A DNA stretch of 64,000 nucleotides from positions 25,968 through 89,967 of the IMG/VR virus record IMGVR_UViG_3300043411_001777; one strand, 5' to 3'. Below the pieces are notes generated by a model that made no database searches, was not told where the DNA came from, and saw only the letters and a program-made list of their open reading frames with translations. Positions 30,130 through 61,154 of the stretch are shown here, piece by piece. The position numbers and the translations under genes are program-made. Positions within the stretch are counted from its first letter, which is position 1; the number at the start of each line of letters is the position of its first letter. This DNA comes from a virus.

Positions 30130-30922
30130 TTGCCTTACTCCTGGCGGCATATTCCGAAACGGCTGCCACCACAATACTTGGATCACAATTGTACAGGTCT
30201 GCCGAGCTAAAAGGGTTCAGCTCCATCAGGAAAAGCTTATCGTCACACCGACACACGTCCAGTACGTAAACACCAGCGTCTACGTCAAGTTCGCGTGCAA
30301 TTTCCTCTGCAAAAGCCCAAGGATTATAATTCCAGGGGTTATGGTCCTCATACAGGGGCATCCCCGGCTTGTTGTCCTTGTACCCGCTTCCAGTGACGAC
30401 CTTTCTGTCAACCACTACGAACCGGTATTCGGTTCCCACGTTGCGGACGGGAGACACGATGATCGGAATGTTAAGATCATCGTAGTAAACCCCGTAATCC
30501 AACAGCTTAAGGAGAGCACCTATCGTAGGGGCATCTACCTTACTCACCACCCGCCCGCTGAATTCCTTGTCTGGCCGGTCAGGACGGACAAAGACACTTT
30601 CTGAGGCCCCCACCGCCTCAAAGTAGACCCCAGGCCCTGGGAGGGAGACAAATTGGTTTACCGTCGTCTGCACCCACGGCTGTTGAAGCGACCACTTACC
30701 CGCCTTTGGGTAATACGAAGAACAGTTGAAATCGAAGGTGCCGAAATTCGACCCGACTGAACGCTTAGAGCCTTCAATGCTCCCGCGATATACACGGGGG
30801 ATTTCCTCGGAAACTGTTGTGGCTGCCTTTACTGGCCCCATCCACTGATGGCCTTGGCGCTCAATCTCAGCCTTTAGGCTGGTGTGCTCGTTGAAGACAC
30901 CCTTTTCCAGAACCCAAAGCAT
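30116..30922 (-). CDS. ATP-grasp-fold enzyme (268 aa)
   Basis: C-terminal YVLDVCRCDDKLFLMELNP is the typical ATP-grasp Mg/ATP motif (E-x-N). The start was chosen to avoid a 44-nt overlap. Confidence 0.55.
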   Translation of the reverse strand: MLWVLEKGVFNEHTSLKAEIERQGHQWMGPVKAATTVSEEIPRVYRGSIEGSKRSVGSNFGTFDFNCSSYYPKAGKWSLQQPWVQTTVNQFVSLPGPGVYFEAVGASESVFVRPDRPDKEFSGRVVSKVDAPTIGALLKLLDYGVYYDDLNIPIIVSPVRNVGTEYRFVVVDRKVVTGSGYKDNKPGMPLYEDHNPWNYNPWAFAEEIARELDVDAGVYVLDVCRCDDKLFLMELNPFSSADLYNCDPSIVVAAVSEYAARSKANVAV

Positions 30923-30923
30923 A

Positions 30924-31478
30924 TCAGACCCCTGCCTCAAAATCGATTTCGTCGATCGGCTGGACAATCATCCAAGCCGTTTCAGTCGCAGAATTGTTCT
31001 GCGTTTCCTTTACAAGGACCCCATCCTTGTAAAGCAACGATACCTTTCCATCTGTCCACTCCAAGGATTTGGAGAAAGCGTTCACCACGGCGAGCCCGGC
31101 CCCTACTCCAGGGTTTCCTTTATCCTCACACTGACAGGCATGCATTTCCTCCAGCATTACTCGGATAGGCGTCCGCTCCATCCCTGGCCTTTTGGTGGAC
31201 AGGTCGGGCAGCCCTGTAAAGGTGAAGAAGATTTCCCGGCTTTGCTTGTAGACCTTCACCTTCACCTCAAAACCGATCCTCTGAGGAGAGAAGAAATTGT
31301 CTAGGGTTGCCATTACGATCTGACGTACCCCTTCCCGCTTGTAATTCGCGAGGTACATATCAGGGCGCTTACGGATGGCATCGATGGAAGAAAGCAGTTT
31401 CAAGGTAGGTCTCCTACAGGAGGGTACCAACGACAAGCCCCAACTTAGGGTTCCAAGTTGGGGCTTGTCTGCGCACAA
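30924..31478 (-). CDS. GyrB N-terminal (GHKL ATPase)-like fragment protein (184 aa), likely degenerate
   Basis: LSSIDAIRKRPDMY is like GyrB RKRPGMYIG, and GVGAGLAVVNAFSKSLEW is like GyrB GVGASVVNALS. The N-box/G1 motifs are not evident. TTG start. Confidence 0.35.
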   Translation of the reverse strand: MCADKPQLGTLSWGLSLVPSCRRPTLKLLSSIDAIRKRPDMYLANYKREGVRQIVMATLDNFFSPQRIGFEVKVKVYKQSREIFFTFTGLPDLSTKRPGMERTPIRVMLEEMHACQCEDKGNPGVGAGLAVVNAFSKSLEWTDGKVSLLYKDGVLVKETQNNSATETAWMIVQPIDEIDFEAGV

Positions 31479-31493
31479 AACGGGGAGCTGGGT

Positions 31494-32453
31494 TTATGGC
31501 TCTACAAAGGGCTGGTCCGCTGCTTCCTTAGCAGCCTCCACACGCTTGATCAACTCGGCATTGATCGCCTGGTCCATCCATGCTGAGGTGTTCAAAGGCT
31601 TGGTCATACCCTCATTATAGGGTACGAAGAAGACGTTATTATCCCCAGCAGCAGCCTTGCCCATGGTCTGAATCTGCTCGTAGGCGATGAACTGGGGCGT
31701 GATAGAGGCCCCCAGGATGGCATTGGCGTCCGCCACGGACTGAGCGTCCAACAAGCGCTTCTGCGCCTGAATCTGGGCAACCTTGAGATCCGCCTGGGCC
31801 TCTGCAACCTGTGCTTCACCCCGAGCACGCGCTGTCTCAATCTCCACCACCTTCTTAGCCCGAGCTTCCTGGGCATCGGTCACCACATCGGGAAAATCCA
31901 GGTCTGTCAGACTGACCCGCTTGATCTTCACCATACCGTGCTGGGAACTCGCCGTGACTGCCGCCTGTACCTCTTCGATAACAGAGGCGCGAGACTTCAC
32001 CAACTGATCCGTCGAATACCTCGAAATGACCTTCTGGGCTTCCTGAGCCGCATTCGGAATCACATAGGTCTCTGCCAACTGATTGAGCGTGATAACATAG
32101 GGTTCCCCACTAGCGCGAGGGGTCTGTTCCGGCTTCAAATCCTGAAAGGCATTCTTTACGGCCTCTACATCGTTGAGGTCCAACGAAATCAGAATGTCAA
32201 GCGTGAACTTGAAATTCAGAGAATCGTTGCACAACACATCCATCGGAATCTTGAAGTTCTCATCCGTGGTTTCCATGAGATACATGCGACAGCGCCCAAT
32301 GCATGTATGATTTCCAGGCTGGAGAATCCCAGGGTCGAAACCGCTGGGCTCCCGCAACCGACCGATATGGCCCGCAGGCACCGGCTCCGTGCAAGCCGAA
32401 AGAACGAAGAGCAGACCGAAAATAGCGAGCAGACGATACATATTATTCAGCAT
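31494..32453 (-). CDS. SPFH/band-7 (prohibitin/HflC-like) lipoprotein (about 315-319 aa)
   Basis: Signal peptide plus lipobox MYRLLAIFGLLFVLSAC. A central SPFH-like region is followed by an Ala/Gln/Glu-rich coiled coil. Confidence 0.6.
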   Translation of the reverse strand: MLNNMYRLLAIFGLLFVLSACTEPVPAGHIGRLREPSGFDPGILQPGNHTCIGRCRMYLMETTDENFKIPMDVLCNDSLNFKFTLDILISLDLNDVEAVKNAFQDLKPEQTPRASGEPYVITLNQLAETYVIPNAAQEAQKVISRYSTDQLVKSRASVIEEVQAAVTASSQHGMVKIKRVSLTDLDFPDVVTDAQEARAKKVVEIETARARGEAQVAEAQADLKVAQIQAQKRLLDAQSVADANAILGASITPQFIAYEQIQTMGKAAAGDNNVFFVPYNEGMTKPLNTSAWMDQAINAELIKRVEAAKEAADQPFVEP

Positions 32454-32730
32454 CCTTATTACGCAGGTTCTTGAACTGGTTACGGAATTCATTGTATTCT
32501 CGGCCTACAGGAACCTCTTCCTTAGGCTGAGGTGGGACGACAACAACAGGACGAACAGCGGCTTCCTTTTCCTTGTGGTCATCCACAAAGATGGGGTTTG
32601 GGGGCTCCACATTAAACGTTTTGGACGGTTGGATTTCCCCTGCCGTATTCATGCAGAAATACGCGCCAATGCTGGCGGGAACGATGGCGAAAACAACTAC
32701 TGTCCAAAAAACGCCCACATACTTAATCAT
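32443..32730 (-). CDS. small membrane-anchored protein (95 aa), possible NfeD-like partner of the SPFH protein
   Basis: N-terminal TM helix VGVFWTVVVFAIVPASIGAYF and a Pro/Val-rich C-terminus. Confidence 0.4.
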   Translation of the reverse strand: MIKYVGVFWTVVVFAIVPASIGAYFCMNTAGEIQPSKTFNVEPPNPIFVDDHKEKEAAVRPVVVVPPQPKEEVPVGREYNEFRNQFKNLRNKDAE

Positions 32731-33460: not shown

Positions 33461-34372
33461 TTAGGTCGAAATCTCGTAGTTGCAGACGAAAACCTCATCC
33501 GTAACCGGTTTCGCCTTACGAGCGACTTTCCCGTAATTGTAATCCATGACGTGAAGATGGAAACCTTCTGCCAAGAGCTTTGTTACCACAAGGGGATTAT
33601 CGTCGCTATCCGCCCGATAGACATTGGACAAGCCGACACTATCACCCCTCTCGTTCAAACGCATGCACGTATCGTACAGGGTTAGGTCTTGGGTACGCCC
33701 CCAGAAAGTGTTGTACCCAGCCCCATTGTGGGCTCCCGAGTAGGGAGGATCCATATACACCATGGACCCTTCGGGAATGGGCACCTGATCGAAGGGGAGG
33801 CTGTGATAGCTCAGCTTATGCTGATGGGGCTGGAGGTGTTTACGGAAAGCAGTGATTTTCTCTTGGGTCCGCGAATTGAATGAGCGCTGTCCCCAAGTCT
33901 GATTGAACCCCATATTCAGGTTGAACCGGAGCATGTTGTTGGTGCAACTCAGCATAAGGGCGTAGAGCCGAGCGGGAGATTTCTCCCTGTTGTACTCAGC
34001 CCGTAATGCATTATATCCGTTTTGGGTTAGAGCTGTAGCACAAAAAGCCTTTACAAGCTCGACAAAGCCCGGGTCCTGGATTAAGGCTTTGTGTGCTCCG
34101 ACCAAGTCCCCAATGAGATCGTTGACTATGACGTGTTCGTATCGGTCAATGACATTGGTGTAGACAGCCCCACCTCCCGTGAACAAGTCGACAAAGGTGG
34201 AGGGCTTAGGGTCGAATTTGGGGATGAGTTGGTTTAGGAGAAGGAATTTGCTTCCGGTGTAGTTGAAGGGCGGTTGGACGTAATCCGGACTTTCAGAGAG
34301 GAAGGCGAGCAAATCTGTCACAACAGATCCCCATTGCTGTCTACCGAGACATCCTTTCCGCATCTGGCACAT
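33461..34372 (-). CDS. DNA N6-adenine methyltransferase, Dam-like D12 class (303 aa; N-terminus uncertain)
   Basis: FNYTGSKF, FTGGGAVY (SAM-binding) and catalytic DPPY (MVYMDPPYSG). Confidence 0.8.
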   Translation of the reverse strand: MCQMRKGCLGRQQWGSVVTDLLAFLSESPDYVQPPFNYTGSKFLLLNQLIPKFDPKPSTFVDLFTGGGAVYTNVIDRYEHVIVNDLIGDLVGAHKALIQDPGFVELVKAFCATALTQNGYNALRAEYNREKSPARLYALMLSCTNNMLRFNLNMGFNQTWGQRSFNSRTQEKITAFRKHLQPHQHKLSYHSLPFDQVPIPEGSMVYMDPPYSGAHNGAGYNTFWGRTQDLTLYDTCMRLNERGDSVGLSNVYRADSDDNPLVVTKLLAEGFHLHVMDYNYGKVARKAKPVTDEVFVCNYEIST

Positions 34373-41376: not shown

Positions 41377-43110
41377 GTGAACGAAGAAATCCCAGAGAAC
41401 CTCCCCGCCATTGTTGACGTGATTCGTGCCGAAACCGTCGCGGATACAAGCGAACCCGTCGCAATTGGCCAGTGGTTCTGGCGCCGGGCCAAGCCCGAAC
41501 GCTATCTCGTCTGCGTTACCCATGTAGGTTCAAACTTCGCTATGGTTGAAACCGTGGGAGGCCGAACCGAACGAATTCTATTGGAAGATTGGGAACGCCA
41601 TTGTCGAAAGGCAAAGGCCCCTAATCGCTATATCGACACCCAGGTTGGCTTCCACAAGGAACGAGTGCAAGAGCTTCTGTCCGAAGTGCAGGCCGTCACG
41701 GCCCGACTCGGACTTCAGCCTACTGAAGCGCTCGGCAATAGCACGTCCAGCACCAGCCTCGCAGTCGTGCATGGTGTGGGTGACGTCCAGGCCCACAAGC
41801 TCGAATTGATCGAGGCGAAGAGCAAGACACTCCCCGAGCTTTTCAAGGAAATCGAGGGCCAGCATGCCGCTATGGCCATGTGGATGAAAGCCTCACTCAT
41901 CCCCATGAAGGCAATTGCAGCTCAGGCTAGGCAGGCAACGTCGAGCATTGACAGTCGGATCATGATGGTCGAGCTATACGCGGGCTTGACTGAGGAACTG
42001 ACCCAGATCCTGGACGGGGAGCCCGCCCCAAATGACACGCGCATCCACCTGTTTCAGCGCCAGCATTACATGGATGAGGAATGCCTGGCTCAATATGAAG
42101 CCGGGGGCATGGATTTCCGTGGCATCGGTGCTTTTGACAAGTGGCTTGCCCGCCCCCAAAACCTGAATCGTATCCTGCCTTTCCCACGCAGTATCGTTGC
42201 ATTTCAGGTACGCCGAAAGGCTAAGGATTACGGCGAGGCCCGCTCACTGTCTGAAGCGATCCGCTTCTGGGAAATGGGAGAAGCCGACAAGCTGACGTTC
42301 CTGTATATCCGAAACGGAGATACCCTTCACCGATTGAGCACGGCTGTTGAATTCGGCGAGAATCTTTTCCCGGACCATGAGAATGAGGAACTTCTGGGCG
42401 AGGGTCCGAAGTGGATCGTACAGAGTAGCTTTGGATTCGAGAGGGTCATTTCAGAGCGCGAGCATGACGCAGTCATGCTAAAGCGGGAAGAAGAAAACGC
42501 AAAATACAAGCGTGAGCTGGCGGCGTGGAAATCAGAGTCTGAAAAGACGCGCAGTCATTTTGAGCCATATAAACCATATGGGCGGGACACCCATGTTCCC
42601 CTCTCACGTGACAGCGTCTATTACGATGATGCTATGCGGTCGATGGCGGAGAGTGCGGTTGCACACAACCGGATTGCCGTCGTAATCCAGGGGCTTCTGG
42701 ACCGCTCGATTGCGCTCCACCCTCACCCTCCCTGGCAGCTTTGGACCCCGGAAGGTTTTACGGGCGCGCTGGAACTCGTTTTTGACGCGTCCCGGGGCAT
42801 TGCTAATGGGGAGCCGCCGAACTTTGAGGCGTACTTTGCCCGGCTTGGAGAGAGCATTAAGGCTGGCTCCATGGTGATTGGAGCGCAGGAGCTGTGGGAA
42901 CGCGCAGAAGCTGAAAAGGAAAACGACCGGCGACGGAGAAGTTATCGATACCGTTCGGACGAGTGTTACGAGAAGTCCAGTTTCCCTATGGGGGAAGCCC
43001 TCCAAAGAAGTACGGATGCAACAACGTTCACTGCGGTAATCCGTTCGCCTACGTCGAAAAGGACTGTCCAACTTCGTGCCCAAGGTGTGGCGCCAGTATG
43101 GGACGGCTAA
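41377..43110 (+). CDS. large hypothetical protein (577 aa) immediately upstream of rtcB. Its C-terminal ~50 codons overlap an alternative-frame zinc-ribbon ORF.
   Basis: Long ORF with no recognisable motifs. Confidence 0.5.
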   Translation: MNEEIPENLPAIVDVIRAETVADTSEPVAIGQWFWRRAKPERYLVCVTHVGSNFAMVETVGGRTERILLEDWERHCRKAKAPNRYIDTQVGFHKERVQELLSEVQAVTARLGLQPTEALGNSTSSTSLAVVHGVGDVQAHKLELIEAKSKTLPELFKEIEGQHAAMAMWMKASLIPMKAIAAQARQATSSIDSRIMMVELYAGLTEELTQILDGEPAPNDTRIHLFQRQHYMDEECLAQYEAGGMDFRGIGAFDKWLARPQNLNRILPFPRSIVAFQVRRKAKDYGEARSLSEAIRFWEMGEADKLTFLYIRNGDTLHRLSTAVEFGENLFPDHENEELLGEGPKWIVQSSFGFERVISEREHDAVMLKREEENAKYKRELAAWKSESEKTRSHFEPYKPYGRDTHVPLSRDSVYYDDAMRSMAESAVAHNRIAVVIQGLLDRSIALHPHPPWQLWTPEGFTGALELVFDASRGIANGEPPNFEAYFARLGESIKAGSMVIGAQELWERAEAEKENDRRRRSYRYRSDECYEKSSFPMGEALQRSTDATTFTAVIRSPTSKRTVQLRAQGVAPVWDG

Positions 43111-43157
43111 CCGAATCCGAAATACTCTACTATGTAGAGTTTGTTCCTGGAGACTAG
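42963..43157 (+). CDS. zinc-ribbon ORF (64 aa) in an alternative frame. It is either a separate overlapping gene or the true C-terminus of the 41377 gene reached by a frameshift.
   Basis: CNNVHCGN-x15-CPTSCPRCG, GTG start. It ends 2 nt before the rtcB ATG. Confidence 0.35.
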   Translation: MLREVQFPYGGSPPKKYGCNNVHCGNPFAYVEKDCPTSCPRCGASMGRLTESEILYYVEFVPGD

Positions 43158-43159
43158 AA

Positions 43160-44386
43160 ATGCGTGTAATTCAGTCCAATGAGATGCGAGTCCCCGTCAA
43201 GATTTGGGACGGCGGCGGAAACGTTCCTTTCGAGGACGCCGTTATCGGGCAGATTTCCAATGCTGCCACCCTTCCCATCATCCACAACCATGTTGCGCTT
43301 ATGCCCGACGGGCATTTTGGCATCGGAGCCGCGGTCGGATCAGTAATCCCCACCGTCAACGCCATCATCCCTGCGGCTGTAGGCGTGGACATTGGTTGCG
43401 GTATGGCTGCGGTTCAGACTTCCCTGAACGCCTCCCAGCTTCCAGACTCACTCGCTGCACTTCGCTCTGCGATTGAGCAGGCGGTTCCCCATGGCCGTTC
43501 CGACAACGGTGGGTCGAATGACGTGGGGTCCTTCCGGGGCAACTCCCTTCCTGCAACCCACGCAAAGGCATGGGCGGATGAACTGGCCGTGGGGTACGCA
43601 AGGATCGCATCGAAGTATCCCAAGCTCGGCTCTGGTAATTCGGCCAACCACCTCGGAACTCTCGGAACCGGTAATCATTTCACAGAGTTGTGCCTTGACG
43701 AGTCGGGCCAGGTTTGGGTGATGCTGCATTCGGGAAGCCGCGGGGTTGGTAACCGTTTCGGTATGCATTTCATCGCCTTGGCGAAGGAGGATATGATCAA
43801 GGCTGGCCTGACGGCGGTCGACAAGGATCTGTCCTACTTGACCGAGGGGACCCAGCATTTCAACGATTATGTTGAGGCCGTGGATTGGGCGCAGAAGTAC
43901 GCCCGAATCAACCGCCAGCTCATGATGGGGGAGGTTATCCGCGTGATGCGTGATTTCCTCCCACCATTCACGCTGACCGAGATGGCGGTCAACTGCCACC
44001 ACAACTATGTGGCGCGCGAGCACCACTTTGGACAGGATGTCTGGCTCACCCGTAAGGGGGCTGTTTCTGCTGCACAAGGGCAGTTGGGCATCATCCCTGG
44101 ATCGATGGGTGCCAAGAGCTTCATCGTTCGTGGGAAGGGCAACCCCGAGTCCTTCCATAGCTGTTCGCACGGTGCGGGTCGGTCTATGTCTCGGGGTGAG
44201 GCCAAGCGCCGTTTCTCACTTGAGGACCACGAGAAGGCCACTGTTGGGGTGGAGTGCCGAAAGGATGTCGGAGTCATTGATGAGACCCCGGCTGCGTACA
44301 AGTCGATTGACAACGTTATGGCGGCTCAGACGGATCTCGTCGAGATTGTCTACACACTCAAGCAGGTTCTTTGTGTGAAGGGGTAA
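43160..44386 (+). CDS. rtcB: RNA 3'-phosphate/2',3'-cyclic-phosphate ligase RtcB (408 aa)
   Basis: Start MRVIQSNEMRVPVKIWD, with GGAGA upstream. The protein also carries the RtcB hallmarks HNHVALMPDGHFGIG, GCGMA, GTLGTGNHF, LHSGSRGVGN and CHHNY. Confidence 0.85.
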   Translation: MRVIQSNEMRVPVKIWDGGGNVPFEDAVIGQISNAATLPIIHNHVALMPDGHFGIGAAVGSVIPTVNAIIPAAVGVDIGCGMAAVQTSLNASQLPDSLAALRSAIEQAVPHGRSDNGGSNDVGSFRGNSLPATHAKAWADELAVGYARIASKYPKLGSGNSANHLGTLGTGNHFTELCLDESGQVWVMLHSGSRGVGNRFGMHFIALAKEDMIKAGLTAVDKDLSYLTEGTQHFNDYVEAVDWAQKYARINRQLMMGEVIRVMRDFLPPFTLTEMAVNCHHNYVAREHHFGQDVWLTRKGAVSAAQGQLGIIPGSMGAKSFIVRGKGNPESFHSCSHGAGRSMSRGEAKRRFSLEDHEKATVGVECRKDVGVIDETPAAYKSIDNVMAAQTDLVEIVYTLKQVLCVKG

Positions 44387-44389
44387 CCT

Positions 44390-44662
44390 ATGCGAACCAT
44401 GAAGCCATTTACCCAACCGGCCACGACTAAAATGGTCACAGACCGTGTGATTTGTGACGTGTGCAGGAAGGATATCCCGAATCCGGGTTGGTACGAAAAG
44501 CAGGAATGCCAGGTTTCTATGGAAACGGGGTCCACATATCCCGAATGTGGAGACCTTGAAAAGGTCGAATTCGATATCTGTGTCCCGTGTTTCACGGAAA
44601 AGCTGATTCCTTGGTTCGCGGCCTTTAACGCCCCCCCTAGGGTTTTGGACACGAGTTACTGA
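44390..44662 (+). CDS. zinc-finger protein (90 aa)
   Basis: CDVC...CVPC. Confidence 0.45.
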   Translation: MRTMKPFTQPATTKMVTDRVICDVCRKDIPNPGWYEKQECQVSMETGSTYPECGDLEKVEFDICVPCFTEKLIPWFAAFNAPPRVLDTSY

Positions 44663-44845
44663 TGATGACGGGAAGTTTGACCTCTACGACGTTTACGGTA
44701 ATAGTCCCGAGACCTACATCCCGAACGTGGATGTTTCGCTCTCGTACAAGAAGCGCCTCCGCCTATTGAATGAGGCTGCTAAACCTTGGATCAAGCAAGT
44801 AATTCGGGAGCAGTTTCCAAACCTCCAATGGGAGTGGGATACATA

Positions 44846-45229
44846 ATGTGGGTGAAATTCTACGCGGATAGCGGCCGATATGCCTATGAAGAGAAATACT
44901 TCTGGGAAGACAACCCCGACCCTGAGGCACTATCCTCCGAATTAGAGGATTGGGCCGATCGGGCGAGCAGGAACTGGGAACGGGTTTCGGCAGGCTATGA
45001 TCTGCTGGAAGCTCTCCCGCCTGAGGTTCATGCGGATTTGCTTGAGGAGTTTACGCGACGTAAGGCATACGCCGAGAAGATGTTAGCGCATCTTGCTGAG
45101 GTTCCTCCACCACCCCGTAAATATGGGGCTAGAATGCCACAGCCTCTACAAGAAACAGTTGGAGACCGCCCAACAGCCCAGGATTTGGCGCAGCTAGTGA
45201 AAGAGATGGTGGACGAGGATGACGAATGA
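44846..45229 (+). CDS. hypothetical acidic protein (127 aa)
   Basis: Start MWVKFYAD, with GGGAGTGGG upstream. Confidence 0.45.
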   Translation: MWVKFYADSGRYAYEEKYFWEDNPDPEALSSELEDWADRASRNWERVSAGYDLLEALPPEVHADLLEEFTRRKAYAEKMLAHLAEVPPPPRKYGARMPQPLQETVGDRPTAQDLAQLVKEMVDEDDE

Positions 45230-45398
45230 TCTCCTCTACGACGAGGTGCCGTTCGATCTACACGCGGCCCTCATCGAAGCATACTTCGACTACATAGCTG
45301 AGCTGTTCCGCAACAGATTCAGGCACCTCCAACCCATTTCGGTTGAGGTTGACTTTGGCGACAAATGGGGTTGGACAAATGACGCAAACAACGGGTAA
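45219..45398 (+). CDS. small ORF (59 aa, MTNDLLYDEVPFDLHAALIEAYFDYIAELF...), below the ORF-track threshold
   Basis: Protein-like translation. Its ATG overlaps the stop of the 44846-45229 gene (ATGacgaATGA). Manual translation. Confidence 0.3.
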   Translation: MTNDLLYDEVPFDLHAALIEAYFDYIAELFRNRFRHLQPISVEVDFGDKWGWTNDANNG

Positions 45399-45693
45399 TG
45401 TCGAAAACCCGGCTCTTCTTATCCAAAGCGCTTTCTTCCTTGCCAAAGCAAAGAAGACGCTCAAACGCTATTCTGAGTTAGATCAGATCGTTGAAGGCCC
45501 CCCGCAAGGGATTCTCAAGGCAGAGGCCGACTTCATAGAGGGCCAACGCGGCCTAAGGCACCTTTGCGGAAAGAACCTGCATTCCAAGCTCAAAGACCTT
45601 CCCGACGAGTTGCTTGAAACGTGGCTTTTGGCTGGGGAGGAACTCAGCAACGCCTGCGCCAAAATTAGAAACGACCGAAAGGGCAGCACATGA
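45379..45693 (+). CDS. hypothetical protein, paralog of 45690-45998 (104 aa)
   Basis: C-terminal ...LLAGEELSNACAKIRNDRKGST compares with ...ALAGEQIHKICTQIRNDRKDNK. Confidence 0.45.
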   Translation: MTQTTGNVENPALLIQSAFFLAKAKKTLKRYSELDQIVEGPPQGILKAEADFIEGQRGLRHLCGKNLHSKLKDLPDELLETWLLAGEELSNACAKIRNDRKGST

Positions 45694-45998
45694 CCAATGA
45701 TATCCCAAACGGGTATTTCCGACAGGATATGACTGCTCCTAGCATTGGGGGCATAGACCCAGTTCTTCTTGCTCATTTCGCGTACTTCTTTGCTAGAGCA
45801 ACAAAACGCCTCGCAACCGCCACTGTTCCCCAAGAACTTCAAGAAGCGGATTCCTCCGCAAGTTTCCACGGGCGAAGACTACGCTCAATCCTCGGAAAGC
45901 TTCCGAATGATGACTTACTTGAAAGATGGGCGCTAGCCGGCGAGCAGATTCACAAGATTTGCACCCAAATCAGAAACGACCGAAAGGACAACAAATGA
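45690..45998 (+). CDS. hypothetical protein, paralog of 45379-45693 (102 aa)
   Basis: Tandem paralog; its stop overlaps the purA-like start (ATGA). Confidence 0.45.
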   Translation: MTNDIPNGYFRQDMTAPSIGGIDPVLLAHFAYFFARATKRLATATVPQELQEADSSASFHGRRLRSILGKLPNDDLLERWALAGEQIHKICTQIRNDRKDNK

Positions 45999-47128
45999 TC
46001 AGTTTCGCGGACATTGTAGTAGACCTCCGTTACGGCGACTGTGGCAAAGGCGCCGTAGTTTACGAGCTTTGCAAGGACCCCCGTTACGACATCGTCCTCC
46101 GGTGGAATGGGGGGTCCAACGCTGGCCACACGATTTACCACAATGGGGTGAAATTCGCCACCCACCTCATTCCCACTGGAATCTTCCACGGTAAGCTTTG
46201 TGTGATCGGGTCCGGTTGTGTGGTTAACCCGCGCAAGTTTTTTGAGGAGCTTGAGTCCCTTCGCAATATGGGCATTGAAACCGAGGGTAAGGTTTTCATT
46301 GCCAAGAACGCCCATATTGTGACCGAAGAGCATATTGCCTCCGAACAAGCCGAATCCAAAATCGGCACCACTAAACAGGGGATTGGCCCTGCCTACGCTG
46401 CAAAGCACGCCCGTACTGGCATTCGAGCAGAGTCCGTCCCCGAGCTGGCACCTTACCTCGTTGACCTCTATGAGCTGTTCTACAGCTCAACACCCTATGG
46501 AGTCCTAGCCGAAGGGGCACAGGGGTTCGACATTGATATTGACTGGTGTGCAGAATACCCTTTTAGCAGCTCATCCATTGCGACCGTTGCAGGAGCTATT
46601 CAGAATGGCATTCCTTGGGACAAGGTTCGCAAGGTGTTCGGGGTGGCTAAGGCTTACGACACTTATGTGGGCTCCCGGGACTTTGAACCCAAGAACGCGA
46701 TTTTCCAAAAGCTGCGCGAGCTGGGCTCTGAATTTGGGGCTACTACAGGCCGTCCTCGCCAGTGCAATTGGTTGGACCTATATGGGTTGACCAAGGCGAT
46801 CGAAGTGAACAGCGTTACAGACGTGGTCATTTCCAAGATGGATATCCTACGGGAGCTGAACAAACAGACTGACAACCAGAACTGGTGCTTTGCGCATAGC
46901 CGCGAATCCCTTCCTGGGGAGGATTCATTCGTGGCTTATCTCAGCGATCACCTTATGAAGCTGCAAAGCGTGAAACGCCTCCATTGGAGGAATTCGCCAA
47001 CAGATTCAATGGGGAATGGGACGATGTTCTGTCGGGGCACAAGCCGAACTGACAAAACGCAATTAGAAATCATGCGTGACATTCTCCGTCAAGAGCAATT
47101 TAGGTACATTTCCAAGGAAGGGCTATGA
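45995..47128 (+). CDS. purA: short adenylosuccinate synthetase-family protein (PurA-like; 377 aa); PurZ candidate not excluded
   Basis: GDCGKGA P-loop (PurA GDEGKGK), NGGSNAGHT, GIGPAYAAK, GATTGRPRQCNWLDL, and SKMD (a TKLD-like guanine motif). It is about 50 aa shorter than bacterial PurA. AAAGGA RBS. Confidence 0.8.
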   Translation: MISFADIVVDLRYGDCGKGAVVYELCKDPRYDIVLRWNGGSNAGHTIYHNGVKFATHLIPTGIFHGKLCVIGSGCVVNPRKFFEELESLRNMGIETEGKVFIAKNAHIVTEEHIASEQAESKIGTTKQGIGPAYAAKHARTGIRAESVPELAPYLVDLYELFYSSTPYGVLAEGAQGFDIDIDWCAEYPFSSSSIATVAGAIQNGIPWDKVRKVFGVAKAYDTYVGSRDFEPKNAIFQKLRELGSEFGATTGRPRQCNWLDLYGLTKAIEVNSVTDVVISKMDILRELNKQTDNQNWCFAHSRESLPGEDSFVAYLSDHLMKLQSVKRLHWRNSPTDSMGNGTMFCRGTSRTDKTQLEIMRDILRQEQFRYISKEGL

Positions 47129-47631
47129 CCTCAGTATTCCTGGATTCTGATGGTGTTTGCGCTGATTTTGACCGCGGATTCCCTGAAATCTTTGGCATTG
47201 ACCACCGGTCAATCCCAGAAGAAGAGATGTGGCGGCTGGTTGCGGAACTCCCAACCTTTTTTGATGAGCTGCCTCTTATGCCAGATGCAGAAGAGCTGTT
47301 CAATGGGTTGCGGGACTACGATCCTATTATCCTAACCGCATGCCCTAAGGCTTGTTTTCAAGCGGCTGCAATCGCTAAGAAACGATGGGTTCGGCGGCAC
47401 TTCGGGCTTCATGTAAGAGTGCTTCCGGTTTGGGGTGGGAAGAATAAACCCCTCTACATGCACCAGCCTGGGGATATCCTTATTGACGATTGGCAGGACA
47501 ATATCACGGCTTGGAACGCTTTTGGCGGAACTGGCATCCTGCACTTGGATGCAGCTTCCTCGCTTGAGGTTGCACGTATGTCCTTAGCCTATGACACGGA
47601 TAGGGCAGCCCGTCGACGGGTTCGGGAGTAA
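47125..47631 (+). CDS. HAD-superfamily 5'(3')-deoxyribonucleotidase-like protein (NT5C family; 168 aa)
   Basis: N-terminal FLDSDGVCADF (the DxDx(V/T) motif I of HAD, as in deoxyribonucleotidases). Confidence 0.65.
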   Translation: MTSVFLDSDGVCADFDRGFPEIFGIDHRSIPEEEMWRLVAELPTFFDELPLMPDAEELFNGLRDYDPIILTACPKACFQAAAIAKKRWVRRHFGLHVRVLPVWGGKNKPLYMHQPGDILIDDWQDNITAWNAFGGTGILHLDAASSLEVARMSLAYDTDRAARRRVRE

Positions 47632-47634
47632 GGT

Positions 47635-48387
47635 ATGGATTCAAAGTTTCGTGTTCTTCCTCCCGAGCACCTACTTTCTACGGGGCTTCTGTTCGAGATC
47701 AACAGAGCCGTCCTGCACAAGTTCGGACTGGCCCTCGCATACACCACGGACGACACTGATGCGTCCAAACCAGCCTATCTGTCTATCCTAAAAGTGGATG
47801 ACCCCGAGGGGCTAATCTTCGGCGAAGACCTACGTTCTTCGGGCTACCGCAAGTACAAGGACTTTCTTAACGAAGAAACCCCTAAGCTTGCGTGTCGTCT
47901 GGGTACCTTTGGTTGGCTAGATCAGCCTGGGAATGTCGTGACTAAGATAGAGCAATTTACAGGGGAGTACCGTTGGTTGTCCAACTTCTTCGATGTCGAA
48001 GTGGTTTTGGATGGCGTGACGTACAGCTCCACTGAGCACGCTTACCAAGCGGCGAAGACTCTTGACCCGATTGAGCGGGAACGTGTCCGATTGGCCCCCA
48101 CGCACGGGGCCTCCAAGCGGGAGGGGCGAAAGATTACCCTCCGCCCCGGCTGGGACAGCATCAAAAACGATGTCATGTTGGACCTTCTTCGGCAGAAGTT
48201 CGCGCGTCCGGACTTGAGGCGGCTTCTCGACGAGACTGGGGAAACTCAGCTTGTTGAGGGCAATCACTGGCATGATGTGTGGTTTGGCGTGTGTAGCGGC
48301 AAGTGTCGTAGTCCTCATGCTAAGCCTGAGGGTGCCAATCATCTAGGCCGAATGCTCATGCAGGTCCGTGACGAGAACAGGAAATGA
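47635..48387 (+). CDS. NADAR (YbiA/DUF1768)-domain protein with an N-terminal extension (250 aa)
   Basis: YRWLSNFFDVEVVLDGVTYSSTEHAYQAAK ... GWDSIKNDVMLDLLRQKFA ... ETGETQLVEGNHWHDVWFG matches the NADAR signature. Confidence 0.7.
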   Translation: MDSKFRVLPPEHLLSTGLLFEINRAVLHKFGLALAYTTDDTDASKPAYLSILKVDDPEGLIFGEDLRSSGYRKYKDFLNEETPKLACRLGTFGWLDQPGNVVTKIEQFTGEYRWLSNFFDVEVVLDGVTYSSTEHAYQAAKTLDPIERERVRLAPTHGASKREGRKITLRPGWDSIKNDVMLDLLRQKFARPDLRRLLDETGETQLVEGNHWHDVWFGVCSGKCRSPHAKPEGANHLGRMLMQVRDENRK

Positions 48388-48677
48388 AACCGATTACACC
48401 CCAAGAGGTTGTCCGCAAGGTTAAACCTATCCCTCCCGAAATCATTGAGGCTTTCAATGATTTGATCAGGGAGAACATTTCCGGTAATTCGGCCAAAGTC
48501 CTGCTGCGACAAGCTATTTCACGGATAGCCCAGAAGACTGGGTTTAACGAACAAAAGATTCTTCGTTGTTGGTGGTTAGACAACGTGGAACCCATCTTTC
48601 GAGAAGCAGGTTGGGATGTGACATATCGGGACTCACACTACTACGAATCGTATTACCTTTTCACGGTGAAGAAGTGA
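48384..48677 (+). CDS. hypothetical protein, paralog of 48674-48982 (97 aa)
   Basis: KPITPQEV...IPPE(I/V)IE(A/V)FNDLI(R/A)EN(I/F)SGNSA...FTVKK. Confidence 0.5.
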   Translation: MKPITPQEVVRKVKPIPPEIIEAFNDLIRENISGNSAKVLLRQAISRIAQKTGFNEQKILRCWWLDNVEPIFREAGWDVTYRDSHYYESYYLFTVKK

Positions 48678-48982
48678 AACCAATTACACCCCAAGAAGTA
48701 GCTGACCGCAAGGTTAAGTCTATCCCACCCGAAGTCATTGAGGTTTTCAATGACTTGATTGCGGAGAACTTTTCCGGCAATTCCGCAACCGTCACGGTGA
48801 CTCAAGCAGTCACCCGCATCAAAAAGAGGATGGGGAGGCGGACTAATGATGAACAAATCGTTGAACGGGGCTGGTTGGACATTGAGCCTATCTTTCGAGA
48901 AACGGGTTGGGATGTGGTATACGACCAGCCTGGGTACAACGAATCCTACGAGGCGAACTACACTTTCACGGTGAAGAAGTGA
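48674..48982 (+). CDS. hypothetical protein, tandem paralog of 48384-48677 (102 aa), GTG start overlapping the previous stop
   Basis: GTGA overlap. The protein ends TFTVKK. Confidence 0.5.
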   Translation: MKPITPQEVADRKVKSIPPEVIEVFNDLIAENFSGNSATVTVTQAVTRIKKRMGRRTNDEQIVERGWLDIEPIFRETGWDVVYDQPGYNESYEANYTFTVKK

Positions 48983-49446
48983 TGGCGTGGACCTCCAACC
49001 TCAAAATCCTCGAAATGAACCTGTTTGACGCCCCAAAAGGGGCTTTGCTGGTTCATGCCTGTAATTGCATGGGCCGATGGGGGAGCGGTATCGCCAAGGT
49101 CTTCGCAGAGAAAAAGTCGAAGGCTTACGTTGAATACCAACACCTCTGTTCAAGGGGCGTAACCCCAGGTATGGCCGACATTCTTTCTGAGAATGTCGGC
49201 GTCCTCTTCACCTCCAAGGGCTACGCCAGCACCGTTGACAGTCCAGCTCAGATCCTGACAGCGACACGATTGGCCGTCAATGACCTTCTGGCCAAGTGTC
49301 GCTCGGAAGGGCTGTCGCTGGTGTACTCCAACAAGTTCAATTCCGGGCTGTTCAAGGTCCCCTGGGTGGACACTGAGAAAGTGCTGGCAGAGGTTCTGTC
49401 GGGTTACCCTGAAATCGAATGGGTGGTTTGTGACTACACCGGCTAA
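48982..49446 (+). CDS. macro-domain protein (ADP-ribose binding/hydrolase; 154 aa)
   Basis: LVHACNCMGRWGSGIAKVF matches the macro N-x(2)-G-x(2)-G-x-G-(I/V)-A motif. Confidence 0.75.
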   Translation: MAWTSNLKILEMNLFDAPKGALLVHACNCMGRWGSGIAKVFAEKKSKAYVEYQHLCSRGVTPGMADILSENVGVLFTSKGYASTVDSPAQILTATRLAVNDLLAKCRSEGLSLVYSNKFNSGLFKVPWVDTEKVLAEVLSGYPEIEWVVCDYTG

Positions 49447-51068: not shown

Positions 51069-52046
51069 ATGACGGTCGAATCTAGGACACTGATTCAGTG
51101 GCTCCAGGCGCATGGCTTTACGGAGGTGCCGAAGGCCGGGTCTAGTCACCATAAGTGGCAACACGAAAGCACAAAAGCTAAGGTCACGGCTATTCCAACG
51201 CAACGGGAAATGACCCCAAACACACTCACCCTCTGTTTGCGTGAAATCCAACGTGCGGGTTTCCGAAAGCAGGCAGTCCGAAAGGAATTATTCGCGATGC
51301 AAGCAGGCTCTGCAAAGTTGCAAGTTAGCACTATCGACCTGAAGAAGCCAGTTGAGGCCCCAGTAGCTCAATCGGCTCCGTTGATTCAGGCGGAAACCTC
51401 GGCTCCGTCGGCTCCAGTAACCACGGCTAACGTGGCCTCACCCTCTCCTCTCCAGAGCCGTGTTGATGCTGTGCTCAGGCGTGCAGGCGAAGTCATTGGT
51501 CTACCGGCCTTCGCGAAATTCAAGACCACACCAGAGACGGTTGGGCTTTTGACGGCTCTCCTTGAGATCCTGACTCAGGTGGAGGATCTCTTTTTGGAGA
51601 CCGCGTTGAAGGCTGAGGCTCCCAAAACGGAGCTTGCGCCCCTTCCCACATTTACTATGGTCCCCACCCCCTTTGCACTCCCTACCAAGCTCGTTCCCAT
51701 TGGGATCCTCACGGAGGAACACCTTCGGGATGAGGCGCGGTCCCTTCAGCTCCCTAATGGGATGCCGCTGAATGAACTTCGTGAACAGGTTCGAGAGCTT
51801 CTTCTCACTGAAAAGTGGCTCCCTCTCGGGTCAACTTTTCCGGGGTATGAGCTGTCAAATCACAAGCGAATCCGCTCCTATCGAGAGCGAGGATTTCCAA
51901 CCACGCATCGCCGAAAGCTTGCTAAGATTCGGATGCCCGTCGAAGGACGGATTACCCTTCGTGGTCCGGACAAGAAAACCACCAATATCCTGTTGACCAA
52001 CATGGATGCCCTTTGGGCAGATTTGGAAAAGTCAGCGGCCCGGTAG
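51069..52046 (+). CDS. protein with an N-terminal HicA/YcfA-like domain fused to a low-complexity linker and a basic C-terminal domain (325 aa)
   Basis: LIQWLQAHGFTEVPKAGSSHHKWQH...KVTAIP....TLTLCLREIQRAGF matches the HicA toxin fold signature (GSHH). An Ala/Pro-rich linker follows. Confidence 0.5.
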   Translation: MTVESRTLIQWLQAHGFTEVPKAGSSHHKWQHESTKAKVTAIPTQREMTPNTLTLCLREIQRAGFRKQAVRKELFAMQAGSAKLQVSTIDLKKPVEAPVAQSAPLIQAETSAPSAPVTTANVASPSPLQSRVDAVLRRAGEVIGLPAFAKFKTTPETVGLLTALLEILTQVEDLFLETALKAEAPKTELAPLPTFTMVPTPFALPTKLVPIGILTEEHLRDEARSLQLPNGMPLNELREQVRELLLTEKWLPLGSTFPGYELSNHKRIRSYRERGFPTTHRRKLAKIRMPVEGRITLRGPDKKTTNILLTNMDALWADLEKSAAR

Positions 52047-57657: not shown

Positions 57658-58638
57658 TTAGAGTAGGTCGGAAACATCCGACTCAAGTATAGCGCCATCC
57701 GCTGATGATATGCAATAAGGAGAAAACCAAATCCGCTCCTTATGCCGGTTTTTCGCATTCCCCTCATCCGAGGACTGCCCATACGCTCGGGTGGCCGAGT
57801 AGCTAAAACAACGCCACGACGACGGCATTTCATGCTCACCATCGTATCCGCACAACGCAATTCTTATTCGGGGGTCTTCCCCGTGCTCCAGAGCCCATTC
57901 CCGAACCTTAGCCGATAGGTCCGGTTCTTCGTGGGTGTATAGGCCCGCATAGGTGCCCTCATCCGAGTAAGGCGGGTCTAGGAACACCCCTACAGTCTTG
58001 CCTCTGTAGAGAGCCCCCGTAGTGACTACCCGAGACCAATCCCCACAGCACACCCTGACGTGCCGTAGCCGCTCCCTGAGCGAAAACAGATAGTCCCACA
58101 CGTCCTGCGTAGGTCGGTTGATGCCAACGCCTGTAGTGACGAGATTGGGGAGCTTACGGCGAACCCCGGGCGTGCCTTCCGGAGCTGGGACTTTACGGCT
58201 GTCTAAGACTCGGCCATTATCAATGTACCAGGGGCCTTTTCCGCTGCACCAGGCCGCGCCGATCCATGAGGAGATTCCCCATACCCACAGCCCAGCAACC
58301 TGACTGTCAAAATAGAAGGGGTCAGCCTCTAGCTTTGCAATCCGTGCAGCCCCCTCGTTCACTAGCCAAAGGTGGGTGGCGATTAGATCCGTCTCATTGA
58401 CGGGACGATCAGCCCAGACGGCAACCCCTTCCGGGTCATGTTGAATCGCCCGGAAGAAATTGCAAATGAAGCCGTTCAGGTCATTTACGGTTTCAATGCG
58501 TGGTTTGTGGGGTCGTGCCAACAAAACGGCACCCGACCCCACAAACGGTTCCGCATAATGGTCTACGTCACCGAGAGCCCTCCAAACTTCGGCCCCCACA
58601 CGACTTTTACCACCGAAATAGGCAAATGGAGAGCGCAT
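57658..58638 (-). CDS. DNA N6-adenine methyltransferase, Dam-like D12 class (326 aa)
   Basis: FAYFGGKSR, EPFVGSGAV and catalytic DPPY (VFLDPPYSDEG). Confidence 0.8.
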   Translation of the reverse strand: MRSPFAYFGGKSRVGAEVWRALGDVDHYAEPFVGSGAVLLARPHKPRIETVNDLNGFICNFFRAIQHDPEGVAVWADRPVNETDLIATHLWLVNEGAARIAKLEADPFYFDSQVAGLWVWGISSWIGAAWCSGKGPWYIDNGRVLDSRKVPAPEGTPGVRRKLPNLVTTGVGINRPTQDVWDYLFSLRERLRHVRVCCGDWSRVVTTGALYRGKTVGVFLDPPYSDEGTYAGLYTHEEPDLSAKVREWALEHGEDPRIRIALCGYDGEHEMPSSWRCFSYSATRAYGQSSDEGNAKNRHKERIWFSPYCISSADGAILESDVSDLL

Positions 58639-59003
58639 TAGGGCCGAACGAGCTTCGTCACGTCTGAAATCTCACCCGTCATTTGACGGGAAAGGTCTTC
58701 CCAGGAAATGCCGTTCTCTTTCCAATTTTCACCCGTAACCCACCACTTAGAGCCTAGCTTAATCGCTACGTAACGGTAGGTCCGGCTTGAAAATTGGGGA
58801 GTACGACGCCAAAAAATGACGTCTTCATGCCGATAGATATCTTCGCCGAGAGGTGAGGCACGCTTAGCGTGCTCCAACTCAACTTGAAGTCGATTTCTCT
58901 GCCGGAGAGATTTGGCACGGAATTCTTCTGCCCTTTTATTGAATTGCAAGGCCTCGATTTCCAAATCATGCAAAGCCTTGTTAAGTTGCTCAACCTTGGT
59001 CAT
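58638..59003 (-). CDS. hypothetical protein (121 aa)
   Basis: ORF with an ATGA overlap. Confidence 0.45.
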   Translation of the reverse strand: MTKVEQLNKALHDLEIEALQFNKRAEEFRAKSLRQRNRLQVELEHAKRASPLGEDIYRHEDVIFWRRTPQFSSRTYRYVAIKLGSKWWVTGENWKENGISWEDLSRQMTGEISDVTKLVRP

Positions 59004-59967
59004 TTGGCACTTCCTTAAGGTACTTATTCCACTGCTTAAAGGGGATCATGAAGCCCGCCGCGTTCTTGTGCCCACCACCTCCAAATGAAGTGGCAATCTT
59101 GCTAACGTCGGCGCGGTCACAAGACCGCAAAGACACCTGAGCCATAGGCTCTCCGTCCTTGTAGTGAAGATACCACACCACACCGAAAGGCGCGTCCAAG
59201 GCCAAGACGTTTCCGATTTCGGACTGGTAATGGGCAGAACATACAGCGGGAACCAACCAAGGACGCTTTCGCCAGAAAGCCCACCAGGGCTTATGCCCTA
59301 GTCGAATCATTCCCTTATGCTTCACGGAACGCTTAACCTGCTCCTGCTCTGCCTTATAAAGAGCCGTACCGATCAGCTTGGCATTTTCAAATGCCCCCAG
59401 TGCCTGCATCTCTTCGTATGCCGGGATCGAAAAATCCAGGTTAACGAGAAACGAGTTGATTTCCTTTGAATCTGGGAGCTTCCACGTCCAAAGGTCGCGA
59501 TCCTCGGCATAGGCAATGAACCAAGGGACCTCTTCACCAGGGAAGAAGTGCTCCCAGCACATCCCACAACCAGAATGATCCATATCGAACTTGCAATATG
59601 GCAAGTCCCCAAGCTTTTCCTGCGCCGAAATGTGGTGGTCCAGACAAATGAAGGACTGCGCCCTGGCGTTCCAGGTATCCATTGCTTCGCGGCCTAGGGT
59701 CACATCCGCCATAATGACGTGCTTGCCAACAGGGTCCGCTTTAGGGGTCACCCCTGGAATTGTCGGGACCAGCTCGATATTGGCGTCAGGCACCCCCATT
59801 TTCCGGAGGAAGAGAACGATGACCAAAGCTGACATCATCCCGTCAGTACAGTTCTTGTGGAACGAAATAAGGTAAAGGTCGTTAGGGTGCCAATTTCTAT
59901 TTACCACGGTCAAGTCCTTAAAAGGATGAGAGAAACACATTCCAGCCCAGTATTGGGGGAAACTCAT
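58990..59967 (-). CDS. DHH-DHHA1 family phosphoesterase (NrnA/RecJ-like; 325 aa)
   Basis: DHH motif I LISFHKNCTDGMMSA, motif III ICLDHH, and the DHHA1 GGGHKNAAGF. Confidence 0.7.
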   Translation of the reverse strand: MSFPQYWAGMCFSHPFKDLTVVNRNWHPNDLYLISFHKNCTDGMMSALVIVLFLRKMGVPDANIELVPTIPGVTPKADPVGKHVIMADVTLGREAMDTWNARAQSFICLDHHISAQEKLGDLPYCKFDMDHSGCGMCWEHFFPGEEVPWFIAYAEDRDLWTWKLPDSKEINSFLVNLDFSIPAYEEMQALGAFENAKLIGTALYKAEQEQVKRSVKHKGMIRLGHKPWWAFWRKRPWLVPAVCSAHYQSEIGNVLALDAPFGVVWYLHYKDGEPMAQVSLRSCDRADVSKIATSFGGGGHKNAAGFMIPFKQWNKYLKEVPNDQG

Positions 59968-60596: not shown

Positions 60597-61154
60597 ATGC
60601 GTGAAATAAGACGTGTCTTCACAACGAACATCCTCTGCTGGTCCGATGGAATTAGGCTGGAAGGGCAGAATATCGTATTTGGAAGCCTTTTCGGCCCAAG
60701 AAATGCAGTTCGGGCTATCTGGGCTTACCTTGTAATGAAGAAGTCCGCGGAAGTTACAATTGAGGGCCTCGACAATTACTTCAAGCTCGACACTTCCAAG
60801 TACCTCACCATCCAAGCCCCGCTTGATAAGCGCGGCGGCGGATTACACCTAACGATGCTTCAAAGCGAAGCCACTAATCAGCTCTCTGCTTGGAGCAAGA
60901 GTTTTTACCAGCTCGGGTCTGACACCTATCCCTGGCCTTTCGGGGAAACTCCGTGGGACAGCTTTTGGGGTAAGCTGACACGTATGTGTACCGTACCCTT
61001 GCGCCCGGCATGGAAAGACCAAATGTGGGAAATCGGTCGCCAATCTGGACTGATTACCGAACTCGACGGTTTTGGGGTCCCCGTCTTTAGCGTGTCGACC
61101 GACAATTGGTTTAAGGTCGTGATGCATAACATCCAAGCTGGAGTGCTCGTATGA
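60597..61154 (+). CDS. hypothetical protein (185 aa), co-transcribed with the methyltransferase-helicase gene (ATGA overlap)
   Basis: ORF. Its stop overlaps the next start. Confidence 0.5.
   Translation: MREIRRVFTTNILCWSDGIRLEGQNIVFGSLFGPRNAVRAIWAYLVMKKSAEVTIEGLDNYFKLDTSKYLTIQAPLDKRGGGLHLTMLQSEATNQLSAWSKSFYQLGSDTYPWPFGETPWDSFWGKLTRMCTVPLRPAWKDQMWEIGRQSGLITELDGFGVPVFSVSTDNWFKVVMHNIQAGVLV

Follow-up and report, generated by a model that had tools for sequence, protein, structure and literature searches.

The 64,000-nucleotide stretch analysed here, which we call the window (positions 25,968 to 89,967 of IMG/VR virus record IMGVR_UViG_3300043411_001777), encodes a phage-borne homolog of adenylosuccinate synthetase (PurA), and its sequence identifies the enzyme as a canonical PurA of a short architectural class and not as PurZ, the relative associated with genomes in which 2-aminoadenine (Z) replaces adenine. 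The protein has 377 amino acids (aa; 45995..47128, + strand) and is encoded within a run of co-directional, tightly packed plus-strand genes spanning 41.3-50.9 kb. The same run contains an RtcB RNA 3'-phosphate/2',3'-cyclic-phosphate ligase (408 aa; 43160..44386, +) and an NT5C-type HAD 5'(3')-deoxyribonucleotidase (168 aa; 47125..47631, +). All three genes had been named in a first-pass annotation made from the sequence alone; profile searches recovered each of them on the plus strand, and an independent gene call on Logan contig SRR35185575_276006 (69,956 bp), of which the window forms part, returned the same three sets of coordinates. Each belongs to a known kind of phage accessory gene, and in our judgement the window very probably carries an RtcB for RNA repair, a canonical short PurA and a HAD nucleotidase as accessory genes of this sort.

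The PurA protein matches the family PF00709 with E=1.6e-77 and 261 bits (cut-off 27), in two stretches because of an internal deletion. Its scores against NCBIfam PurA models are 254, 229 and 205 bits, and the archaeal short model PRK04293 matches at 163 bits in one collinear stretch. We aligned the protein with the Salmonella enzyme as reference sequence and give PurA positions in enterobacterial (E. coli) numbering. The P-loop, G14-D15-C16-G17-K18-G19, contains the equivalents of the catalytic base Asp13 (D15) and of Lys16 (K18), and the segment N42-A43-G44-H45-T46 contains those of Asn38 (N42) and of the catalytic acid His41 (H45). Residues that contact inosine monophosphate (IMP) are kept: N42, T126 (Thr129), R140 (Arg143, from the partner subunit), Q176 (Gln224), V225 (Val273) and R253 (Arg303), with S192 as a conservative Thr-to-Ser change at Thr239. 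T125, the equivalent of Thr128, is also retained. The aspartate loop, G248-A-T250-T251-G-R253-P-R255, corresponds to Thr300, Thr301, Arg303 and Arg305 and follows the "TTGRPR" pattern of plant and megaphage enzymes. In the guanine motif, S280-K281-M282-D283, K281 and D283 align with Lys331 and Asp333 of the enterobacterial TKLD element, which bears out the earlier proposal that the protein retains an SKMD equivalent of TKLD. Near the C terminus, NSPTD (S334, P335), which reads (S/G)P across the family, stands opposite the S-x-G-P element in a part of the alignment that is less certain. Asp13, Lys16, Asn38, His41, Thr128/129, Arg143, Gln224, Val273, Thr300/301, Arg303, Arg305, Lys331 and Asp333 are likewise retained by each of the relatives that we sampled (24/24).

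A shortened, phage-borne PurA homolog could also be a succino-amino-deoxyadenylate synthase of the PurZ/PurZ0 type. In that case 2-aminoadenine would replace adenine, and the deoxyribonucleotidase, translationally coupled downstream, would help to remove dAMP. The PHROG family of the protein, phrog_1211, points the same way by its label, "2-aminooxy adenylosuccinate synthetase". PurZ (phiVC8, S-2L) and PurZ0 (Archimedes, Wayne-like) also belong to the PurA superfamily, are encoded by phages, are shortened and share its fold (template-modelling (TM) score ~0.7), and the first-pass annotation had named alignment, scoring of the pockets and phylogeny as the means of telling the two apart. Published work supplies sharp markers. 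Asp13 is 99% conserved in PurA and is Ser in 147/147 phage PurZ/PurZ0 sequences (PMC12884076). S-2L PurZ makes specific substrate contacts through S23, T273 and Q308 and has F306 in the donor pocket, while Arg303, which touches both the IMP 2'-OH and aspartate in PurA, is displaced in PurZ (PMC8342488). Finally, S14, T262, F295 and Y298 of phiVC8 were the top PurZ discriminators in a study that separated metagenomic 2-aminoadenine (dZ) contigs from adenine (dA) contigs experimentally (preprint 10.1101/2025.10.22.683976).

At every one of these diagnostic positions the phage protein has the PurA residue. The positions of phiVC8 S14, T262, F295 and Y298 are occupied by D15, G248, K281 and I284. 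Where all six of our PurZ and PurZ0 references (PurZ of S-2L, phiVC8, BUCT555 and Bm1; PurZ0 of Archimedes and CallieOMalley) have Ser in place of Asp13, it has Asp15. At phiVC8 T262/S-2L T273, the PurZ signature of the dGMP 2-amino pocket and aspartate loop, it has G248, at the start of a GATTGRPR loop that includes R253. At the donor-pocket positions where PurZ has its adenine-stacking and polarity residues (phiVC8 F295, N297 and Y298; S-2L F306 and Q308) it has K281, D283 and I284. More generally, PurZ and PurZ0 carry Ser for Asp13, Ser for Thr128 and Ile for Thr271, replace the GATTGR loop with one of TTVTK type, and replace Lys331/Asp333 with Phe/Gln, Phe/Asn or other residues; none of these changes is present here.

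Whole-protein comparisons agree with the residue map. The PurZ model of NCBIfam, NF038379, gives 101.8 bits against a cut-off of 300. Sequence scores against structures in the PDB reach 188 bits for PurA and 134 for Pyrococcus horikoshii PurA, and fall to 64 for phiVC8 PurZ, 47 for S-2L PurZ and 43 for PurZ0. When the predicted structure was compared with the PDB by Foldseek, PurA chains took ranks 1-33 (n=33) and PurZ/PurZ0 chains ranks 34-43 (n=10). We also built a neighbour-joining tree (35 sequences, 323 columns, 200 bootstraps), composed without archaeal PurA and suited to the question of PurZ or not rather than to that of the family's origin. It places the phage protein within the short-PurA family with 100% bootstrap support and splits off PurZ together with PurZ0, again with 100%.

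PurZ and PurZ0 genes adjoin genes for DatZ, MazZ and DpoZ or for DutZ and DmtZ, whereas this purA does not. The first-pass annotation had proposed looking for MazZ, DatZ and DpoZ in the rest of the genome; the part of that search within reach is the 64-kb window. We ran phmmer with the --max option against all six-frame open reading frames (ORFs) of at least 40 aa, using as queries S-2L MazZ and DatZ, phiVC8 DatZ, DpoZ, p26, p33 and p36, and Archimedes genes 49, 51 and 52 and both Dut-like genes. No homolog of MazZ, DatZ, DpoZ or DutZ was found in the window (all E>0.2 apart from PurA itself). Pfam searches of 29 larger and 82 smaller ORFs likewise returned no MazG, DUF550, dUTPase, YfbR-type HD, NDT or PolA domain, and no PurB, archease or RtcA.

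One gene in the window might be taken to favour PurZ, an HD-like phosphohydrolase of 234 aa (12907-13611, -). It has an H...HD...D pattern and matches phrog_19425 ("phosphohydrolase") with E=2e-22, and it has no Pfam match; a homolog occurs in an IMG/VR locus (L037) that also has an NT5C homolog. We rejected it as a DatZ analogue: the protein has no sequence relationship to DatZ, its gene is 32 kb distant and on the opposite strand, and the PurA that it accompanies is not a PurZ. The window also encodes at least two D12-class (Dam-like) N6-adenine methyltransferases (33461-34372, -; 57658-58638, -) and a third NPPY domain. These speak only weakly for an adenine genome, since Z is itself methylated by Dam-type enzymes, if at low efficiency (PMC8342488). 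The third NPPY domain belongs to an open frame of more than 950 codons (61130-64000, +) that runs off the end of the window without a stop; there the N6-adenine methyltransferase domain is fused to an SNF2/DEAH-type helicase (GVGKT, DEAH), and the product resembles large phage methylase-helicase anti-restriction proteins. In the restriction-based metagenomic separation, moreover, most phage contigs with genes of PurA type fell among the unmodified dA contigs (10.1101/2025.10.22.683976). Together, these data leave PurZ identity close to refuted: it can be excluded as far as sequence allows, and we give it next to no probability. The residue map, the tree, the sequence and fold scores and the lack of a Z-cluster homolog in the window all support the leaning of the first-pass annotation towards a genuine GTP-dependent, PurA-like auxiliary gene.

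The protein had been described as about 50 aa shorter than bacterial PurA. It has 55 residues fewer than E. coli or Salmonella PurA, and the shortness is not a simple truncation. Internal deletion of the subdomain at ~147-215 (E. coli numbering) and shortening of the C-terminal hairpin account for most of it. An AlphaFold2 model, for which 38 sequences were aligned, has a mean predicted local distance difference test (pLDDT) score of 87.8 and a predicted TM-score (pTM) of 0.85. Its best target-normalised TM-score in Foldseek, 0.79, is to P. horikoshii PurA (PDB 5K7X; also 2D7U), a solved short form that likewise lacks the ~147-215 subdomain and has the same active site of GTP/IMP/hadacidin type. 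This likeness rests on profile and fold comparisons, with no archaeal PurA in the tree. The P. horikoshii enzyme is only ~29% identical to the phage protein, which by sequence is closer to long bacterial and plant PurAs (188 versus 134 bits); identity to the long E. coli/Salmonella enzyme is ~32% over the aligned 75%, with catalytic and ligand residues in common.

The phage protein belongs to a large family. Of 8,000 candidates scored in a large protein collection, 7,827 proteins match at E<=1e-10, and the best 120 relatives are 49-61% identical and 329-379 aa long, in keeping with a short family of about 330-380 aa. Members are abundant in metagenomic phage contigs and in Patescibacteria/DPANN bins, and some are named as adenylosuccinate synthetases of Parcubacteria, Kaiserbacteria, Patescibacteria or Pacearchaeota. 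The nearest clade consists of phage contigs, in which the closest homologs are 50-60% identical. The single GTDB match (58% identity) comes from a Paceibacterota contig that looks cellular, where it stands between a nucleotidyl transferase gene and one for an FAD-dependent oxidoreductase. No protein in the 50,697 deposited phage records comes closer than the long-type PurA of the 735-kb megaphage LR756501, and its identity of only 41.6% indicates that the short phage clade is known only from metagenomes.

Around phage copies of short PurA a gene order recurs: RecA, 5'-3' exonuclease, DnaB, Dam, ribonucleotide reductase (RNR), DUF7487, PurA, DHHA1 and ThyX; on an IMG/VR contig it reads exonuclease, DnaB, RNR, amidase, PurA, ThyX. 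The only conserved partner of the PurA clade is a DHH/DHHA1 phosphoesterase. In loci L007-L013 it adjoins PurA or sits at most four small ORFs downstream. The window encodes its counterpart (325 aa; 58990-59967, -; PF01368, PF02272; phmmer E=1e-68 to 1e-59 to the proteins of those loci), here 12 kb from purA and on the opposite strand. At a guess, the pair might serve an NrnA-like role in nucleotide salvage.

The RtcB protein matches PF01139 with E=1.4e-124 over profile positions 1-426 of 426 and phrog_1075 ("tRNA splicing ligase") with E=3e-143. Homologs occur in 704 phage records; the closest, with 61% identity, come from the phiCbK-like Caulobacter phages and from Pseudomonas phage pf16. 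A full-length alignment to P. horikoshii RtcB confirmed that the hallmark motifs are all present, as the first-pass annotation had reported: D77, C80, N172, H173, H190, H281 and H337 correspond to D95, C98, N202, H203, H234, H329 and H404. We take the Asp, Cys and His residues of the P. horikoshii enzyme to be the metal-binding set and its His nucleophile to form the RtcB-GMP intermediate. In the phage protein the nucleophile, H337, lies within SHGAGR, and IPGSMG is also kept. The full PF01139 domain, the metal and GMP residues and the His guanylylation site are shared with E. coli and phiCbK-like RtcB. By analogy, the phage enzyme most likely seals RNA ends bearing 2',3'-cyclic phosphate or 3'-phosphate to 5'-OH ends, and would do so, in the GTP- and Mn2+-dependent manner of its family, through a His337-GMP intermediate fuelled by guanosine triphosphate (GTP). 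During infection it may thereby restore tRNAs or other RNAs that metal-independent ribonucleases of the host have cut. Published work views phage RtcB as an RNA-repair enzyme directed against tRNA-cleaving defences, and a comparison of jumbo phages interprets RtcB, Macro and NADAR domains as adaptive responses to host RNases and to NAD+/ADP-ribose immunity (PMC7824862).

Directly after purA, as had been proposed, lies the NT5C-type gene. Its product matches PF06941 with E=3e-8 and 34.1 bits (gathering cut-off 24.8) and, over its full length, phrog_2643 ("5'-3' deoxyribonucleotidase") with E=2.7e-38. HAD motifs I-IV are represented by D7-x-D9, T71, K85/K86 and D121-D122. Its identity to the enzymes annotated as deoxyribonucleotidases in phages of Rhizobium, Brucella, Sinorhizobium, Caulobacter and Xanthomonas is 41-48%, and it shows weak similarity (E ~1e-3) to the structures of human and mouse cytosolic and mitochondrial deoxyribonucleotidases (cdN/mdN). 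The name of phrog_2643 is an annotation and not an experimentally based function, so that a preference for deoxynucleoside monophosphates is a prediction; the enzyme would dephosphorylate (deoxy)nucleoside monophosphates and reshape the nucleotide pool.

The three genes had been described as an RNA-repair and nucleotide-metabolism island, with purA two genes downstream of rtcB. The second point is wrong, as five small plus-strand ORFs intervene (44390..45998): 44390-44662, 44852-45229, 45219-45398, 45355-45693 and 45690-45998, encoding 90 aa (Cys-rich, zinc-ribbon-like), 125, 59, 112 and 102 aa. None belongs to a Pfam or PHROG family above threshold, the only hint being a sub-threshold ZZ zinc-finger match of the 90-aa product. 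The 112- and 102-aa products are tandem paralogs (38% identity, E=2e-15). The end of the last of these ORFs overlaps the purA start, and the NT5C start overlaps the purA stop, each in an ATGA. Immediately downstream of NT5C we found a NADAR-domain protein of 250 aa with an N-terminal extension of ~100 aa (47635-48387, +; PF08719, E=4e-20) and, two small genes further on, a Macro-domain protein of 154 aa (48982-49446, +; PF01661, E=5e-7, with a weak DarG match). Both proteins could plausibly remove ADP-ribosylation from DNA or RNA or clear signals derived from ADP-ribose. The two small genes that separate them (48384-48677 and 48674-48982, +) form a second tandem pair with 60% identity, so that a pair stands on either side of the PurA-NT5C-NADAR block. 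A promoter and terminator scan of 40.5-50.5 kb gave counts not above those in shuffled sequence and is uninformative on transcription units.

As for the island itself, the three genes are present, but their adjacency is unique to this contig and does not represent a conserved module. We checked about 30 related loci: 13 PurA loci (from exact look-up, IMG/VR, GTDB and the LR756501 record), 11 PurA loci from JGI metagenomes and 6 NT5C loci. The RtcB/PurA/NT5C adjacency occurs in none of them, and synteny of RtcB, NT5C, NADAR or Macro with PurA is not repeated in either set of PurA loci or in the NT5C loci. The only partial exception is the megaphage LR756501 (locus L004, 3419-9194), where DUF2828/DUF7788 and RtcB-like (346 aa) genes lie 2-4 kb from the long-type purA, all within 6 kb; this is a second, independent instance of RtcB and PurA in proximity, but a single further one and in a 735-kb genome. 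Most likely, RtcB, PurA and NT5C are independent accessory genes that are neighbours by chance and do not form one pathway.

Several observations weigh against this account of three accessory genes, one of them a canonical PurA. None of the NCBIfam PurA equivalog models is matched above its trusted cut-off. The clade departs from long PurA at several positions (Arg272 to Tyr, Gly130 to Lys, Arg131 to Gln, Lys18 to Ala), and the phage protein has a C-terminal extension of ~38 aa (residues ~340-377) that is absent from aligned relatives and modelled with low confidence (pLDDT 48-63), with a helix predicted at 356-375. S-2L PurZ also has an extra C-terminal helix, reported as compensating for a deletion. 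Deeper branches of the neighbour-joining tree have 30-45% bootstrap support, in a tree with no archaeal PurA. The Z-cluster search spans 64 kb of what is probably a larger genome, which may have such genes at a distance. The tRNA-repair role of RtcB rests on analogy, because the window has no tRNA genes and no other RNA-repair partner; RtcA, archease, RlaP and tRNA genes are all missing from the vicinity of rtcB.

Some of these features could mean that the PurA-family enzyme has an altered substrate, such as dIMP or another 6-oxopurine nucleotide, and works with the HAD nucleotidase in a two-step, phage-specific pathway. The substitutions at 130, 131 and 272, the unique C-terminal extension and the low equivalog scores would fit such a change, as would the ATGA overlaps of purA with the nucleotidase gene and with the upstream ORF. 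We nevertheless consider it very unlikely. The known IMP contacts are kept, Arg303 and Val273 at the 2'-OH among them, as are those to aspartate and guanine. Copies binned to Patescibacteria/DPANN, in which the gene would most naturally be the organism's own PurA, share the substitutions, and the PurA-NT5C adjacency is absent from related loci, whether approached from the PurA or the NT5C side.

On the favoured reading, as a canonical PurA, the phage enzyme would phosphorylate O6 of IMP with GTP, Asp15 serving as the base and His45 as the acid, and L-aspartate would then displace the phosphate to give adenylosuccinate, GDP and Pi. Conversion of adenylosuccinate to AMP would fall to host PurB, which we invoke because the window yielded no PurB. 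Overall, this would push the IMP branch point towards adenine nucleotides for phage RNA and DNA synthesis.

The neighbourhood as a whole admits another explanation, in which the stretch 43.1-49.5 kb serves as a counter-defence island: RtcB would reverse the cutting of tRNAs, PurA would rebuild adenylates after a host defence had deaminated or depleted ATP or dATP, and NADAR and Macro would either reverse DNA ADP-ribosylation of DarT type or break down signals derived from ADP-ribose. RtcB, PurA, NT5C, NADAR and Macro are indeed co-directional and packed, the published predictions for jumbo-phage RtcB, Macro and NADAR run in this direction (PMC7824862), and the RtcB-like and DUF2828/DUF7788 genes of LR756501 sit close to its long-type purA. 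We found no literature linking PurA to counter-defence, however, and the host already has a PurA. In relatives, PurA occurs in replication and nucleotide-metabolism modules and not beside anti-defence genes, the adjacency seen here is unique to this contig, and the one further co-occurrence, in a 735-kb genome, may be chance. We regard this explanation as very unlikely. The more specific version, in which an RtcB...PurA-NT5C-NADAR...Macro island relies on PurA and its DHH/DHHA1 partner to restore adenine nucleotides, strikes us as very improbable. Were counter-defence the true role, PurA would open a new class of anti-defence genes rather than act simply as a metabolic booster.

The phage affinities of RtcB, NT5C and a 577-aa gene upstream of rtcB (41377-43110, +) suggest that the contig is probably a fragment of a large tailed phage with an alphaproteobacterial host. 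Homologs of the 577-aa gene were found only in Erythrobacter, Mesorhizobium, Flavobacterium and Tunturiibacter phages. A megablast search with 43.0-48.5 kb gave zero matches among the 50,697 phage records, which points to a phage without a close sequenced relative. No tRNA gene was found within the 64-kb window, and we identified no structural hallmark gene in the window ORFs that were scanned. Measured against its homologs in Erythrobacter phage vB_EliS-L02 and Mesorhizobium phage Cp1R7A-A1, the 577-aa gene falls short by 70-95 aa. Its 3' end is overlapped in another frame by a zinc-ribbon-like ORF of 64 aa (42963-43157, +), whose final residues bear a weak resemblance to those homologs ("PGD", E=0.5). 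The 577-aa gene may have suffered a frameshift, or a truncation at the site of rtcB insertion. The G+C fraction is 0.56-0.57 at 40-44 kb and ~0.52 nearby.

Elsewhere in the window we identified a TnpB/IS605 OrfB-type protein (17016-18281, -) with helix-turn-helix, OrfB_IS605 and Cas12f-like TNB domains, a mobile-element nuclease inside the phage contig. Other accessory genes encode a 325-aa protein with an N-terminal HicA-toxin domain (51069-52046, +), a radical-SAM enzyme (8628-9746, -), an R2K-clade ATP-grasp protein (30116-30967, -) and an SPFH/Band-7 protein (31494-32492, -). The Mesorhizobium phage likewise has an HflK/C-like gene, close to its homolog of the 577-aa gene.

The main value of these results is a clean negative, as a shortened phage PurA is often suspected to be a marker of a 2-aminoadenine (Z) genome. 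Since this PurA is canonical by its residues and by phylogeny, the contig is not to be counted among Z-genome phages, and the label of phrog_1211 means that PHROG-based annotation would mislabel a canonical PurA as a Z-genome marker. The analysis also documents a very large family of short PurAs whose active sites are intact, whose phage copies are linked to RNR, ThyX and a DHH/DHHA1 phosphoesterase, and for which cultured or deposited phage records offer no close homolog (best 42% identity).

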